This document shows positions 8,870 through 46,165 of a DNA stretch of 54,475 nucleotides, one piece after another. Numbering within the stretch: the first letter of the stretch is position 1; each line of letters starts with the position of its first letter. The stretch comes from Girardia tigrina (lineage: Eukaryota), in contig MQRK01196814.1 in the NCBI GenBank assembly GCA_001938485.1, positions 4,922 to 59,396 on the forward strand, in the 5' to 3' direction. Under the pieces are notes generated by a model. It searched no databases. It was not told the DNA's origin and saw nothing but the letters and a program-made list of their open reading frames with translations. Both the position numbers and the translations under genes were made by a program.

Positions 8870-9622
8870 AGGTGCTTCGACCACAGGTGCTTTGACCATA
8901 GTTGATATATATATATATATATATACACACTATATATGAGAACAAAGAATTTGTTTGTTTTTGGTCCCCATAAAGGCTGGTGCCAGGCCTACTAGATTTA
9001 ATATTAAACAGAAAGTATTCACATACATCATCATCAGCAATATTTGGAAATTTAGCATTTTATTATTTGTATAGTTCTCCATGATTTTGGCTTGTGTGGG
9101 TTAGAATCTAATATTTTAGTTGTTATTAATAATATGATTTTAAAATGTATTTAGAATATTAATTAGAATATTTTTTTAATATATTTTATTTCATTAAAGT
9201 ATTATTGGGTAATAATGGCAAAAATATTTTAATTACAAATTTTAAGTATTGAAATGACCTTAATGGGCAAAGTAAAGTTATTTCGATACTTAAAATTTTT
9301 AATTAAAATATTCTTTTTGTCATTATTACACAATAATACTTTAATAAAATAAAATATATTAAAAAAATTCTATTTAAACTTAATATACATTTTAAAATCA
9401 TATTATTAATAACAAATAAAATATTAGATTCTAGCCCACACAAGCCAAAATCATGGAGAACTATACAAATATTAAAATGCTAAATTTCCAAATATTGCTG
9501 ATGATGATGTATGTAATCATCGAAACATGTCCAATAAATATATAAAACAAGCTTTAATCAAATTATATTTTAAAAATATTAAAAGCTGTGGACAAACCAC
9601 CTATGGTCAAAGCACCGCATAC
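8870..9622. mobile_element. Foldback/Mutator-like element with 15-bp tandem subterminal units enclosing the palindrome
   Basis: GGTGCTTTGACCATAG on the left is inverted as CTATGGTCAAAGCACC on the right, and each side has two 15-bp units. Confidence 0.55.
9021..9514. repeat. ~494-bp near-perfect palindrome (foldback)
   Basis: ACATACATCATCATCAGCAATATTTGGAAATTTAGC... is the reverse complement of ...GCTAAATTTCCAAATATTGCTGATGATGATGTATGT. The arms match up to a short spacer near 9268. Confidence 0.93.
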
Positions 9623-10552
9623 CTTAATTTATTAACAATAAACAATGATATAAACTACTTATATTATTTTTGTTTTAATGAACATAAATTTTTATTTCAC
9701 AATCTAATGAAACAAATTATTTCTTTTTCACTGTCAGCATCAATAAAACGGAAACGGAACAAATTATGAAAATAGGAAGTATATTTTTTATCATAAAGTT
9801 TCATTTACATTATTTGTTATTCAGTTGTTATCAATAAAATATAAATATTATTTTAAAAATAAAACATTGTGAGTTAATTTTAATCGTTTAATTATAAGTG
9901 ACTCTTAATAAAGTTTCTCGAATCGTATAGGGCAAATATAAATTTATACTTTAATAATAAATATGTTTTTGTTGTCGTTGGAATAGCTAAAACTGGCAGG
10001 TTAAGAGTCAATTACAAATACGTTTGTAATCTATAACTTTTAAATACTGAAATTTAAGGAATTTATACAAACTACTTGATTAAAGCTTATAAATATTTGT
10101 AGTAAATTATTAATAAAAATACATTTGTTAATATATGAAGAAGAAAAGAAGTTTTCAAAGTCAATTTTTGAATTACTTTGAATTTTGAACAAGTAATTGA
10201 TCAACTAGTGATAATACTCTAATAATAATTGATCCTGTTACGAGACTCTAGCCAACTTTGGATTGATAATTAAGTAACGAATTCGTGTAAAGCCGAAAAA
10301 AAGTTTTCTTTCTGGAACTTGATACATGCGGTTTATAAAGGTATAGTATTGAAAAAAAATGATTGCAATGTGTAATATTACAAATGCATTTCAATTCTTT
10401 TTGTCATTTTTTTGCAGTCAAAGATCCATAGGCTTCGTTAGATTCTCTTAACGAAAAAGACGAATAAAAGAAATTTTGATCTATTTCTAAGAAATAATAC
10501 TTACAGAATGAAAGAAAATCTTCGATTTAAAGAAAATATATATATATATATC

Positions 10553-11160
10553 AACAAATAATATTTTAAATTTAAAAATTATTTCTCAATCATTTAAAGT
10601 TGAGAATATGTTTTGCAATAAATCACATACTCCTTTAGAATTGTGTTCGGACATTGTTTATCAATACACATGTAATGGATGCAATGCCACATACATCGGA
10701 GAGACTGCCCGTCATCTCTGCAAACGAGTGCAAGAACACAGTCAAAAAGGGGGAAAGAGTAATATTGCTGAGCATAAAAAAAACGTGTAAATGTAATGTG
10801 AGCATAAATGATTTTAAGATTTTGTGCAAGCATTTTAAAAATTATTGGGAGAGAGTGTCATGTGAAGCATTGTTGATAAGATCATGTGATCCTAAAATCA
10901 ATGTTCAAACAGCACTCTCAACCAATTTGTTAAGAGTTTTCGATTAGACTTACGTAAGTGATTGCATAATCATTCATTACTTATATAAAAGCAATAAAAA
11001 AGAACATAATCAGTGATCTGATGATGACGGTTAAACCGTCGAAATATATTATCACGAAGTATATTTTCAAATGGCGTTTATTTGTTCAAATGAAAAAATC
11101 TCATTTTAAAAGAAAAATTCAATTTCAGTCTTTTGCATTCGGTCATTTGACCGGATCCCA
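10553..11160 (+). mobile_element. 5'-truncated Penelope-like element: GIY-YIG endonuclease (frameshifted) plus 3' UTR/pLTR
   Basis: IVYQYTCNGCNATYIGETARHLCKRVQEH...NIAEHKK, then a frameshift in the A-run near 10780, then CKC...FKIL...EALLIRSCDPKINVQ. The CxxC and H...H Zn motif is present. It begins right after a (TA)n tract, and the 3' boundary is approximate. Confidence 0.9.
11013..11055 (+). ncRNA. Minimal type-I hammerhead ribozyme in PLE 3' region (pseudo-LTR)
   Basis: GTGAT-CTGATGA-T-GACGG-ttaaa-CCGTC-GAAA-TATA-TT-ATCAC. Stem I is GTGAT/ATCAC, the core is CUGAUGA...GAAA, stem II is 5 bp, stem III is palindromic (AATATATT) and the NUH triplet is AUU. It lies ~65 nt downstream of the GIY-YIG stop codon. 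Confidence 0.88.
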
Positions 11161-18376: not shown

Positions 18377-18832
18377 ATGTAAACCTTTTCTGCTTTTTTA
18401 ATAGTTTTTCTAAAAATGATTCAGAATAGCTATTTTTATGCATACCTTCTGTTAGTTTATCTATGCTTGCATCATCTTTTGCATATGTTGTTGACCGAGA
18501 CCAACATCTAAATATCAAACCTTTTACCATACTTCTTTTATATTTAGTTTCATAAAAACTTTGTGTAGTAGTATGTAACACTGTACCTGTTTTCTTTCTA
18601 TAAATCTCTGTCTCGTTATGACTACCTTTCCTCTCACTCAACAAATCTAGAAATGACAAAACACCATTCTTCTCAAGCTCAACCGTGAAAACAATATTAG
18701 AATGAAGGAAATTAAAATAAGATAAAAACGGCTGCATATTTTCACGTTCTTTAAAAACAAGAAAAATATCATCAACATATCGTTTATAAGCTAAAGGTCT
18801 AACACCCGTGAACAAGTGAATTTTATCTTCAA
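18377..18832 (-). mobile_element. PLE RT relic, motifs C-E and thumb
   Basis: YKRYVDDIFLVF...LHSNIVFTVELEKNGVLSFLDLL...IYRKKT...LIFRCW. Confidence 0.92.
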
Positions 18833-19478
18833 TGTATTGGGTTCGTAATTAAGATCAAGATTCATAACTATAAAAAATAATTTCTATCACATATTACATT
18901 TTACAAACAAATTTATAAGGAACAATATTTTCAATTTGCATAAACAAGATTTTTTATGAATTCTAAATATAAATATCAATATAATAATTAGTGATATAAC
19001 ATTGATTTTATTTTTAAAAAGTTTTGTATAAATTAAAAATTTATTTTCAATTTTTGTTAATCCAAAATATGATTTTAAACATTAATTATAAAAATCATTT
19101 TCGCTTTAAATTTCAATGTTAAATTGATTTCCAAAAATATTTATTTCCATTGTTTTATTTTAAATATTAATTGTAAAAATTATTTCTAATTTAATTTCAA
19201 TTTCGTAAAATATTGATTTTCACTTTGGATTTTAAGCATTAATTATAAAAATCCTTTTCTGACTTAAATTTGGATGTTAAAAATCGTTTTTCTAAAATAT
19301 TTATTTTCCCTTCGGATTTTAACATTAACTGTAAAAATACTTTTCAATTAAAATTTTCATTTTTAAATTACTTTTCTAAAAACTTATGTAGATAAATTAT
19401 TTGAACTTATTTTAATTATAAATATGATTTCACATTTTAAATTTTCAAAAATCTAAAGTTCACCAAAAGTTCCTAACA
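18833..19478. mobile_element. 646-bp TG...CA insertion (solo-LTR-like or MITE-like) inside the PLE RT
   Basis: Ends are TGTATTGGG...CCTAACA, flanked by CAA on both sides. Removing it restores the in-frame IFLSNVEDKIHLF. The interior contains a degenerate ~158-bp tandem duplication. Confidence 0.65.
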
Positions 19479-19605
19479 CAACATTAGACAGAAAAATAGA
19501 TCCAAGTGTTCGTGCCAAAGGAGAACCCATGGCAACACCGTCTACCTCTTTATACCAATCATTGTTAAAAAATATGAACATTTGATGTTGTAAAAGTAAG
19601 TAATT
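19479..19605 (-). mobile_element. PLE RT relic, motif B
   Basis: FFNNDWYKEVDGVAMGSPLARTLGSIFLSN. Confidence 0.88.
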
Positions 19606-20929
19606 CATGAAAGGTAATATCATCAAGCCTATCATGCTCATCAATTTTACCTTTCCAGAGATCACAACAGAGATCAAATGTTTCTGTAAGAAAAAATGAG
19701 AGCGAGTGGATCTCTATCTTCTATTAACTAAATAAATTACTAATCACAAAGTAATCAGGAACATTTATTATTTAGCATAATAAAAATCAGGTTGTTGTAA
19801 AATTAGATAGTCTAAATGTCAATTCATTTTGTGTTATGGAAATAAATAGATTGGGTTCCTGATATCCAAATCAGCAATAAGTATGTTTCTGTACCAGTAA
19901 AAATGCGTCAACTGAAATAGCCACCATGAGGCTTGTTGAACAAATGCTGATTCCATGTTTAGACTGTTACTAAACATTCATCGGGTGAAACTCACAATGC
20001 AAGTGGTTTAGGTGCCGGTAGTTTGATGGAAATTCATCGGCGAGAATGCCATGTGATATGAATTTCCAGTACCGGCTAAACCAGAAAACCCGATAGATGA
20101 ATTGTGATCCGGTTGGATGCATCACCACTAATGTTGTGGAAATGAATTTGTTGATTTTCTCAATGCGAAAAAAATCCGCTGACATTGATTGGTACAGAAT
20201 ACTTAACACTGGATTGGGATGATATAACTCTATTATTAGGGCCTATGATTGACACATTATGTGTTTTCATCGTAATATAATCCAAGTAGTCTTGGACTAA
20301 GAGTTTGATTGGGGAAAAGCGTTTTTTGAACTGCCCTATTAGAATAGCACAAATCAATAAAATAGGCATTCCAACATACATAAAAATTACATTGTCATGC
20401 TTTAAACAAAACATACTCACTTGTTACAGGAAATGAATGACTGATTAATAAAATCAAATTCTAGATAAAAGTTACACATAAAAATTCAAATTATCGGTAT
20501 GACAGTTAAAAATAATCATAATAAACTGAGGCTTATACTAAAAATAAAATAACCATAATAAATACAGTGTCTTTTGATATTTGGGAGGTAGTCAATCGAT
20601 TCATTGATGGTTATGGCACAGCTGCATGTTATCACCAGGCATTCCACAATTGAAATGTCGAGATAAATTAGATATCGTTAATGTGCTTTACTAGTAACAG
20701 ATCGTCTTGAGAATGAGGTTCCTCGTGACTCTGGACTCGATCGACTCGTTACAAGATAGATCGATATGAGACATTGGGAGAGGTTAATTTAGCGATTTCT
20801 CGTTCTTGTTTCGATGAGTTCGGTCAATGGAAATCGTTCGGAATGATAATTTGTTCAATTCGATACGAAATTTTCTCGGTCAATCGATTCAAATATTAAA
20901 AAATCGATTTTATTTAATTTAATTAATAA

Positions 20930-20972
<43 letters not shown>

Positions 20973-20991
20973 TTCAAATGTAGGGTCACTA

Positions 20992-21285
20992 CAGTTTCCA
21001 TTAATACATTTGTGGAGAGACTTCCATTGTCGAAAGAAATTATGAATTTATTTTTATTACCCAAATCAAAGCTTGAAATTAATTCAACAAATTCAAAGCT
21101 ATTCTTACACTGGAACTCAGATGAAACCAAATGTTTTAATTTAGAATTCCAAAACTTTGCAATACATTATTGAGATGCTTGAATCATCGATAAACAGGTC
21201 TCATTGGAATACCATCCTTATGTACCTTAGAAAATCCATATAGTTTAGCAGGCTGAGAACCATTTGGACATAAAGGATTTTCTAA
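20992..21285 (-). mobile_element. PLE reverse transcriptase relic, motifs 1/2 and A
   Basis: Minus-strand translation gives LCPNGSQPAKLYGFSKVHKDGIPMRPV and KNSFEFVELISSFDLGNKNKFIISFDNGSLSTNV..ETV. It is frameshifted and absent from the ORF track. Confidence 0.8.
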
Positions 21286-22082
21286 CGTCTTATCGATGCG
21301 ACCGTTTTTACAAAGTTTACTCAAAAGAGAACGTAGAAATTCCCCATCTTTCAATGGTGAAAATTTCCCATTTTTACAAAAATTATAAATAATAATAATA
21401 AATTATATTATAAACATTATTAAAATAACAGATAAAAATTATGGGGAAAGAAATGCAAAACCGATATAGGAAACCCCATTAGCGGTCGGAAATCACGAAG
21501 TAAAATAAATAACAGATGGAAGAGGAAGAGTTGCTTTAACAGATGAAAAGATGTATTTGTAAAAGATTTTTGACCACTTTAATCTGTATTGGAAGATTTG
21601 ATTAACATCAACAATTGTTAAAAAGTTATGTGTTTGACTTTGACTAGATTTCAGGTTTATGACTTATCTTGTCATTAGTAATAGAAAAGAAGTTAATATA
21701 AATGAGGTAGTGATGAAATGTCAAGTAGTGATTGATCGGATCAAGCAGCCGCCAACACTTATCGAAAATGTAAAAACAATTTGCAAATATAGTAATAGAA
21801 ATTGCTGTGAAATATACATATAATGAGACAGCAAAGAAACTTTGTTTATATTTTTCTGTAGGCGTTTTTGGTGTAACAAAACAAATGAATAATAATAATT
21901 TTTAATTTTAAAATGTGGTGGTCTTTTGCATCTATAAACTTTATCTTTTCATTAATGATCTTTGGTAATAATAGTTTATTTCAATAAAAACGGTAAAACT
22001 TTATTCCAATAACATTTGAACGATCTTTTTCATAAGTCATTCTTCAAAAATTAACAGAAAATTATTTGAATTGTATATATAT

Positions 22083-30308: not shown

Positions 30309-31099
30309 GTTGCCACGCAACATATTATTTAAACAAAACTCTGAAATTTTCCAGAATTTTTTTATAACAGAAAAAGAAAAAAATAACTATTTTAAGAAAA
30401 AAATAATTTATTTATTTTAATATTTTAAATTAATCTTTTTTTATTTACATTTTTATAATTCAATCAGAACACACACTTTTCGCATTAGTTACATTTTTAA
30501 GCCAGGAAAATTTATAAACATATTCTTCATAACATTTACTTTCATTTTTATGTGACATCATATTTACAATTTTCCTTCCAAAAACTTTGTTACATTTTCG
30601 ATTAATAATATTTGAAAATTTGAGAATCTAGTGAAAATTAAGATTAATTTATGCTTCCAAACAATGAAACATAGCTTCATTTCCTAAATTTATTTAAAAG
30701 CCATTTGGTCTCATAAAATAAGAGTAATTTAGTACTAAATAAGACACTGTATAAATACTATGTAGTACTAAAATCGAAACCTTTTGATATCTACGTTGCT
30801 TAGTAGTTGACCGTCAAAAAATCTCGACAACATTCCCTCCTTCCTCCAACAACTTAAAAATTTATTCAAATATTATTCAGACAGAAAATAGGGTAAAACA
30901 GTCTTGTTATGTTTGAGATGATTTTTAGAATCTTGATTTAAAGAAAAATCGGAAATTAAAATTATTCAAAATTTTATTTATACACCACAATAACAAATTT
31001 TTCAATATAATTTTTCTTTTGCTCAATGTACACATAAAGATAATGAAATTTAAGTATAAACACTTAATTTATTTAAATCAATAACACTTTTCAAAAAAT

Positions 31100-31590
31100 T
31101 ATATTTTATAGTAACAATATATTTCAGTGCGTTTCACGCTTAATTAACAAACATTTCGTTGTCTTATATATAGCAAATTGATGATTATGCAAACAACTTG
31201 CGTAAAAAATAATTAAATATTTTCAAAACAGTGAAAGAGAGACTTGTTTGGACATGAAGGATAAGGAGATTTAATCAATAATGCCTCTCAAATGACTCTT
31301 TCCAATATTTTTTAAAATGCTGCATCATATTTTAAATTTGATGTTTTCACATTCAATCTACAAACTTTCATATGTCCAGCAAAGTTACTCTCATTACCGA
31401 ATTGTGCATTCTCCAGAATCCGTTTACAGAGATGACGAGCAGCCTTTCCAATGTATGTGACTTTGTACTTAATATACAAAAATTGATAAACCATATTGGA
31501 ACATAAACTCAAAAGAGCATGAGATTTATTGCAGAAAATACTTGCAATTTTGTAAGATTTAGAAATCATTTTTAAATCCAAGTTCAAATT
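31100..31590 (-). mobile_element. Degenerate PLE GIY-YIG 3' fragment
   Basis: IFCNKSH...NMVYQF...TYIGKAARHLCKRILEN, then in another frame EALLIKS. Clearly homologous to 10553-10947, including the 3' UTR. Confidence 0.85.
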
Positions 31591-31669
31591 TATAATTAAA
31601 ATTTATAATATAAGATTCATATAAATATTTTAAAAATGACGATAATGAATTTTTAAAAGTCAAAAAATT

Positions 31670-32070
31670 TTTGTCAGAATATATTGTGATTAATTTCGAC
31701 GGATCAACCGTCATCATCAGACTGAATTAACAATGATATACTCGCGTTTATATATCAAAGCAATGTTTATGTAATCATTATGTCATTTAAATCATGAAAA
31801 TACTTTCAATAAAGTTGAAGAGGACAGTGTTTGGACATTGATTTTAGGATCAAAAGATTTGATCAACAATGCTTCACATACAACAATGCCTCTCCCAGTA
31901 ATTATCAAATTGTGAACACAAAATCTTAAAATTACTTACGTCAACTTTACTATTCAAACAGTTCTTCTTATGTTGAGCAATATTGCTATCACTTTCCCTG
32001 CGATTATGTTCCTGAATTCGTTTACAGAGATGACGACAAGACTCTCCGACGTATGTGGCGTAAGACACAG
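31670..32070 (-). mobile_element. PLE GIY-YIG 3' fragment with hammerhead, in tandem with 31100-31590
   Basis: ATYVGESCRHLCKRIQEH...NIAQHKKNC...FKILC..FDNYWER, a frameshift, then CEALLIKSFDPKINVQ. Confidence 0.88.
31686..31722 (-). ncRNA. Minimal type-I hammerhead ribozyme in PLE 3' region
   Basis: Minus strand reads gt-CTGATGA-T-GACGG-ttgat-CCGTC-GAAA-TTAA-TC-ac. Core and stem II match the 11013 copy, the loop differs, stem III is the palindrome ATTAAT and the triplet is AUC. Stem I is weak (2 clear bp). Confidence 0.82.
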
Positions 32071-45310: not shown

Positions 45311-45844
45311 TTTGATGAATATTGACAACTTTTACAAAACAAATTAAAATTTTGGGGTATATTGATTGCTTGAACGTCATTAGAACTTAGAAATATTATC
45401 AATTATTTTATTTATTTTCAGAAAGAAGGAATCATCCTAGAACCATTAATGCCTCACATACGCTCACTCCAAATAATGTATTAAAATCTTATAATAAAAT
45501 ATCTACAAATCCAGTTTAAAAGGTTTCTCAAGTTTCTTTGGTAATTTACTTCTTACATATGTATTAATCCGGACGATAATAACACAAAACCCGTTACAAG
45601 TTAATAGTATAACATATATAGTAAACAATAATTTGAAATGTTTAAAATAGATATTTGTTATAACATTTTTAAAAATCAACGTTGAACATGTTTCAATAAC
45701 AATCAGCAATTTTATTTTTGTTTTATTTATTTGCTTTATTATTTTTTTAAATTTTTATAATAAAAATGGTAACATTTTGTGAAAGACAATGTTAAATTTT
45801 ATTGGTTAATATTTTATTATATTTATTTATTCTATTTAAAGTTA

Positions 45845-46165
45845 TTTAATATTGAGTCTTCTTTCCTTTTCCCATTTCACATATGGGTTAAAGTGTCTTA
45901 CTAGCAATGATTCACAATACAACCTCCCATAATGCGAATCAAAGTTCTGATGAAAAGAAAAATCCTCTTTTGAATTTGATGAAGTTCTATCTTTGTAACA
46001 TCTGCAGTGATCAAGAACTTTACTCGATCTATTCGACTGTGAGTGTTCACTAATCCGTGTATTGAAATGACGATTTGTCTCTCTAATAAACGAGTTTTTA
46101 TCTCTTTGACAATTAAATTTAATAATCAGATTAGCTTTCACGAATTTGTTTAGTTTTGGATTTCA
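45845..46165 (-). mobile_element. Decayed PLE GIY-YIG fragment (different subfamily)
   Basis: NLIIKFNC...SFIRETNRHFNTRISEH...VLDHCRC...ESLLVRHFNP. Confidence 0.75.

Follow-up and report, generated by a model that had tools for sequence, protein, structure and literature searches.

A hammerhead motif with a palindromic helix III in a truncated Penelope-like element of Girardia tigrina

The element and its hammerhead motif

The window, by which we mean the whole stretch of 54,475 nucleotides of Girardia tigrina DNA that was analysed, carries on its minus strand a Penelope-like element (PLE) of a family that we term B (Table 1). The element is 91-94% identical to the family copies L207 and L196, and 89% identical to L214. 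Its GIY-YIG remnant can be followed in two frames with 87-88% amino-acid identity to the L013 peptide, for which we obtained a Pfam GIY-YIG match above cut-off. The open reading frame (ORF) of L207 encodes RVT_1 (35.2 bits) and then GIY-YIG (27.8 bits) in a single frame, with no CxxC found by eye in the linker between reverse transcriptase (RT) and endonuclease (EN), and a DKG motif is present in L206. Since longer family copies contain RT and GIY-YIG in one frame, we interpret the window copy as a 5'-truncated PLE; the family has the canonical C-terminal endonuclease of EN+ PLEs, of which the window copy holds the endonuclease end alone. The hammerhead starts 72 nt after the endonuclease stop and is also found at the 5' end of ORF-bearing copies, which places it in the pLTR. 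Further PLE traits, namely 5' truncation, inverted partners and an optional tail, occur among the copies. A non-LTR retrozyme, built of non-coding tandem repeats that each carry a hammerhead, was rejected because the window copy is dispersed and joined to a GIY-YIG remnant.

Table 1. Positions of the hammerhead-bearing element, its parts and two other PLE copies in the window
Feature	Position	Strand	Remarks
5'-truncated PLE, family B: endonuclease end, 3' pLTR, coding tail	31610..32069	-	ends approximate
C-terminal GIY-YIG endonuclease remnant	31792..32059	-	frameshifted near 31880; resembles L013 peptide
Two TKRCRYAA-type motifs, TGACATAA and TTACATAA	31767..31785	-	also paired at 10950-10969 (+)
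TATATAAA box	31747..31754	-	31 nt before A of Inr-like element
Inr-like TCAGT, predicted transcription start A 31723	31721..31725	-	prediction from sequence and cross-family spacing
Type-I minimal hammerhead	31686..31722	-	2-bp stem I, core, extra U, 5-bp stem II, AUUAAU helix III segment
AUG of A9, extra U and G10.1; ORF start of the element	31712..31714	-	second in-frame AUG 3 nt upstream
First ~33 codons of ORF, through cut site into pLTR tail	31610..31714	-	
Older decayed copy, family C	31065..31584	-	hammerhead core deleted, TATA palindrome kept
Comparison PLE copy, family A	10550..11110	+	hammerhead 11013-11055 with TATA and AUU

Read on the minus strand, the hammerhead comprises CUGAUGA (31720-31714), the extra U (31713), stem II GACGG/CCGTC (31712-31708 and 31702-31698) with the loop TTGAT, GAAA (31697-31694), the palindrome TTAA (31693-31690) and U-C (31689-31688), and cleavage is predicted after C 31688. 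It shares the features of PLE type-I motifs: a core CUGANGA...GAAA...UH with G10.1-C11.1, an extra nucleotide between A9 and G10.1, a short palindromic helix III (A-UUAA-U) and a short helix I (2 bp here, 2-5 bp across families). The published PLE consensus reads CUGANGAH G...C GAAAN-palindrome-NUH (PMC4209133). Core and stem II together have 4,326 exact matches in the genome and the reversed control has none, so the motif is not a chance occurrence. Rfam hammerhead models returned 0 matches across the window at gathering thresholds, unconstrained folding of monomers and dimers did not yield the active fold, and in cofolding of 4 families the active dimer was never the minimum-energy structure. 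We find it very probable that the motif is the 3'-end ribozyme motif of a truncated, frameshifted PLE, its palindrome likely serving cleavage as a dimer.

The family A copy, which is 70% identical to the family B element in the endonuclease region, contains a related hammerhead at 11013. The sequence-only reading had compared the two, and its description holds: core and stem II are the same, the window motif has TTGAT in place of TTAAA in the loop, TTAA in place of TATA in helix III and the triplet AUC in place of AUU, and the TATATAAA box recurs at a similar distance (box end to core is 26 nt here and 28 nt in the 11013 copy, against the 25-30 nt proposed). Overall, 28 of 33 core bases are identical. 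Stem I differs as well, being reduced from 5 bp (GTGAT/ATCAC) in the 11013 copy to 2 bp (GT/AC). The flanks had been described as strongly diverged untranslated regions, and their ungapped identity is indeed low (14/40 upstream, 8/27 downstream), but the downstream flank is coding sequence and the upstream flank is still alignable, with shared motifs kept.

The family C copy lies directly downstream of the family B tail, with its TATA box and upstream motifs intact, and B followed by C forms a mixed-family tandem on the same strand. A third hammerhead at 9498 (+), with a CATG palindrome and a 5-bp stem I, belongs to family M (element region 9021-9611) and is partnered by an inverted partial copy (9021-9262). 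Further pieces matching family M loci are located at 51-202 and 45828-46140, and 18400-21400 (-) contains disrupted pieces of a PLE reverse transcriptase with 70-86% identity to family B DNA.

Palindromic helix III, 2-bp stem I, the AUC triplet and a TATA box with an Inr are all published for PLEs. The pLTR hammerhead of D. virilis Penelope is likewise of type I, with a 2-bp helix I, AUC, an extra base before stem II and a palindromic helix III (U-AU-AU); it differs by a bulge inside stem II that the window copy lacks, and by its extra base, which is C there, A in many listed species and, in the window copy, a U that forms AUG (PMC4209133). AUC is rare in viroid hammerheads (PMC1636495) but not in those of PLEs. 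In Anolis Poseidon (PAc), the ORF also begins at stem II and the tail runs into the ORF, the cut falling 26 bp past the start codon, compared with ORF base 27 in the window copy; cleavage of PAc has been measured and needs protein (PMC11167929), whereas that of the window hammerhead is predicted. The pLTR of Adineta vaga Pen2a similarly holds the first ORF codons and has an Inr-like element preceded at 20 bp by a TATA box, but Pen2a is single-copy, and the passages of that paper considered here do not connect its promoter with a ribozyme (PMC3846280). The general layout of the window hammerhead matches PAc, Pen2a and D. virilis. PLE hammerheads with a short stem III are reported to cleave as dimers (Lunse, Weinberg and Breaker, PMC5785218, via PMC6765202).

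Genome-wide, a loose motif pattern has 36,496 matches, 35,760 with U as the extra base (98%) and 736 with another base; the reversed controls have 17 (4 and 13, respectively). Exact searches returned 2,220 matches for family A, a TATA count that takes in a few related families, and 1,031 for family B. We named 16 families by motif and flank rules, with F2, P and Q represented by single copies and 15 of 167 motifs falling outside families. Helix III is palindromic in most copies inspected: by eye, 92 of the first 100 listed loose-pattern motifs are perfect palindromes, their outer pair being partly forced by the search pattern, and so are 85 of the first 100 in another listing. A search with a purine-first helix III gave 826 matches, mostly single changes away from known families, with 1 palindrome among the first 100 listed (by eye). 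A repeated hammerhead-like motif with non-palindromic AGTA or GGTA and a bulged stem II was seen at L095 (G000:C10444) and in five similar cases (6/100 among the matches listed); no connection of it to a PLE was found. Family N (CGCG; L051-L072 and L157-L170) has some 3,000 matches (listing total 3,429); no upstream GIY-YIG match was found at the family N loci examined, and the family may be non-autonomous or a distant clade. Downstream of the L103 hammerhead, a 263-aa open frame resembles, by eye, a mariner-type transposase. Three long "open frames" from the protein search were discarded as N runs.

Reading frame and predicted promoter

The reverse-transcriptase ORF begins within the hammerhead, and the predicted cut follows ORF base 27. 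A search with DNA from the ORF start gave 30 loci. Where the motif is intact and in place, the frame is open for 150 aa in L214, 139 aa in L224 and, across an N gap, 113 aa in L218; that of L219 is broken by indels, and L208 reads 159 aa across an N gap. Among 20 regions of other families, one family C copy (L274) is in frame for 172 aa and one family H copy (L279) is in frame with a stop at 54, while the frame does not match in both A copies (L267, L268) and in one further copy each of C and H; 14 have no intact motif, and of these two A and one D are in frame by eye. The N-terminal peptides of families A, B, D, E, F2 and H align, and stem II plus loop measures 15 or 18 nt in the A-H and Q representatives, which keeps the frame. 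As the ORF starts inside the ribozyme, the change from TATA to TTAA also replaces Tyr by Leu (TAT to TTA) and the loop change replaces Lys by Asp. The common variants within family B are synonymous and preserve the fold (loop GTT/GTC 20:8, cut site ATC/ATA 16:12). The protein-coding overlap, as read from these sequences, is a second constraint on the hammerhead segment, beyond the fold. In family M the frame from the corresponding AUG closes after ~13 codons, and in S, T and P it also ends soon, which limits the demonstrated overlap to the clade holding the window hammerhead. An AUG at A9-U-G10.1 as a universal PLE trait was rejected, the extra base being A or C in many species of the alignment by Cervera. 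A U at this position raised the cleavage of a viroid hammerhead 3-4-fold (PMC3705267), and the extra U may therefore be kept for catalysis as well. The palindrome of the CATG families (L130, L131 and family M in general) includes an AUG of its own, a candidate for the ORF start in these families.

Upstream of the core, the TATATAAA box would occur in a 10-nt window with a chance of ~0.003. TCAGT, which we take to be an initiator (Inr), contributes its last two bases as the 5' strand of stem I, and the predicted start lies 3 nt before the core. If transcription starts there, the family B RNA would begin AGU-CUGAUGAUG, leaving room for just 2 bp of stem I. The layout recurs across families: A, B, C, D, E, K and Q have a TATA box whose first base precedes the A of TCAGT, TTAGT, TCATT or similar by 28-32 nt, and the strict spacing is found in 7/10 A, 5/14 B, 3/3 C, 3/7 D, 2/3 E, 2/3 K and 1/1 Q copies (shuffle rate <=0.003, for patterns chosen after seeing the data). 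It is absent from M, N, S and T, and the strict spacing failed in F, F2, G, H and P. Stem I has 2 bp in B, C and D, with the Inr A at -3, and at least 3 bp in the A, E, F, G and K representatives, in which the Inr A is further back. TKRCRYAA motifs occupy positions -75 to -40 in 11/14 B, 9/10 A, 3/3 C and 7/7 D copies (shuffle rate ~0.03). They are paired 11-15 nt apart also in L049, L052, L056 and L068, vary in sequence by family within a bZIP-like consensus, and as pairs are absent from families M, N, S and T. These putative elements resemble bZIP sites. The 5' boundary varies widely among the 30 ORF-start loci, from about -158 to positions past the tail, and the boundaries do not cluster at either the Inr or the cut site. 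Among the RNA runs, all 19 of which consisted of contigs, X1, X6 and X7 behave like DNA; four runs compared with the B copy and four compared with the A copy gave no usable start, end or splice joint.

The YAG before the core could instead be the 3' splice site of a pLTR intron, the TATA box being incidental. There is precedent for this in D. virilis Penelope, whose promoter, in contrast to the window copy with its TATA box and Inr, lacks a TATA box and whose 75-bp intron ends at helix I (PMC2377424, PMC4209133), and family A contains a GTAAGT ~70 nt upstream. However, B, C and D keep no donor there, the TCATT of family E lacks an AG, the distance to the core varies but the TATA-to-Inr spacing holds steady at 28-32 nt, and the RNA contigs, as weak evidence, contain no GT..AG joint. 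We thus consider a splice site unlikely.

Selection and pairing across families

The two partners of a type-I double hammerhead would form helix III, as well as both stems I, with each other. On this topology identical copies would need a self-complementary centre, and any palindrome would serve. In an alignment of one representative of each of the 16 families, 93.7% of cells are paired and double changes occur in 9 of the 11 pairs; covariation scores 0.78 compared with 0.22 for shuffled and <=0.16 for slid controls, with stems I, II and helix III all covarying. The helix III centre is self-complementary in 16/16 (AU 10, UA 5, GC 1). As its central two bases can pair only between molecules, this supports selection for dimer pairing. 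The families are related, and firm independent palindrome changes number ~3 (among TATA, TTAA, CATG and CGCG). TGCA was not counted as an independent palindrome, as it is likely a CpG decay product of CGCG: the old group in which it is found also contains CGCA, CGTG, TGCG and CGTA.

A motif-independent sample was drawn from the 30 best loci of a protein search, 28 of which extend to the hammerhead; 27 of these 28 family B copies contain TTAA. Mismatches affect 6 of 336 core cells (1.8%), similar to the ORF end (51/2,234) and the UTR (44/2,085; 2.1-2.3%), which suggests that genomic copies decay neutrally and that selection acts on active parents. The earlier proposal of purifying selection on the fold and the dimerisation palindrome is thus borne out between families, by covariation, but not among genomic copies, which decay at flank rates. 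Selection on fold and dimer pairing in active lineages is supported by these alignments, and selection on the fold and on a palindromic helix III has been published (PMC4209133).

Could the motif be kept merely as coding and promoter sequence, the ribozyme no longer mattering? The segment is coding, and the flank-like decay of genomic copies would fit such an account. Yet double changes in stem II alter amino acids (MTV, MVE, MAG) while pairing is kept, the non-coding 5' strand of stem I covaries, and none of the 16 representatives departs from the core sequence upstream of the AUG, which together make this hardly credible. A different question is what the differences between palindromes mean. 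Four palindromes serve the 16 families, with TATA used by A, C, F, F2 and G, TTAA by B, D, E, H and Q, and CATG by K, M, P, S and T. The sequence-only reading had suggested that they restrict pairing to the subfamily, and they could have been selected as barcodes that block cross-pairing. For A x B (TATA x TTAA) this restriction holds: helix III loses 2 of 6 pairs at a cost of about +6 kcal/mol (computed as +5.4 kcal/mol compared with -0.8 and -0.2 for the homodimers), and stem I pairs are lost as well. Only 6 of 120 family pairs (B-D, C-F, C-F2, F-F2, K-P and M-T) are predicted to be fully compatible once both stems I are required to have at least 2 bp, and mixed same-strand neighbours (B then C in the window; L006, L093, L171) indicate that cross-pairing could be met. 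The restriction does not hold in general, as palindromes are common to many families: a perfect helix III is possible in 30 of the 120 pairs, large coexisting families use one palindrome, and B x D are among the compatible pairs though only ~65% identical in the endonuclease region. Most pairs are predicted to be incompatible chiefly through stem I, a separation that neutral divergence predicts equally well. An endonuclease tree (30 of 41 rows kept, 11 being short or without homology; K, P, H and I absent) needs three palindrome changes and does not reject a single TTAA clade (p-AU 0.254), so palindromes rarely change at family splits. Selection as barcodes therefore appears highly improbable, and we infer that the palindromes came to differ as a side effect while the families diverged under constraints on RNA and protein. 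PLE families with different palindromes (CGCG, GGCC) in one genome have already been aligned for Aedes (PMC4209133).

Possible roles of cleavage

Cleavage would need two copies and probably also the protein of the element, as in PAc. With a start 3 nt before the core and a cut after ORF base 27, the RNA would lose its cap, the AUG and the first nine codons. The ribozyme would then make up the first ~35 nt of the mRNA, start codon included, and the cut would separate this codon from the remaining ORF. We tentatively favour the view that the main role of cleavage is that of a switch shutting off translation of the RNA. This is preferred over a role in which, as proposed by Cervera and De la Pena (PMC4209133), cleavage at both terminal repeats would free a unit-length or circular RNA as the template for insertion. 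The motif does lie in the repeat, so that a tandem transcript carries two copies. On the other hand, genomic copies run uncut ~70 nt past the cleavage site into the tail, which a linear cut RNA could not template, although a religated circle could. In the experiments described for PAc, insertion uses uncut RNA and proceeds normally in vitro with catalytic mutants, and none of the reads terminates at the cut site (PMC11167929). A template role thus seems rather doubtful, if possible.

An extension of the translation off switch, which we rate as quite improbable, is that dimer pairing, helped by the element protein, senses RNA concentration and sorts the families into cross-silencing groups. Helix III and stem I would then define such groups (B/D, C/F, M/T), much like the incompatibility groups of plasmids. 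Judged from titles and abstract openings, we found no proposal of a dimer off switch or of cross-silencing in the literature. The ~36,500 motifs in at least 16 families offer natural compatible and incompatible pairs for tests of translation control and cross-cleavage.
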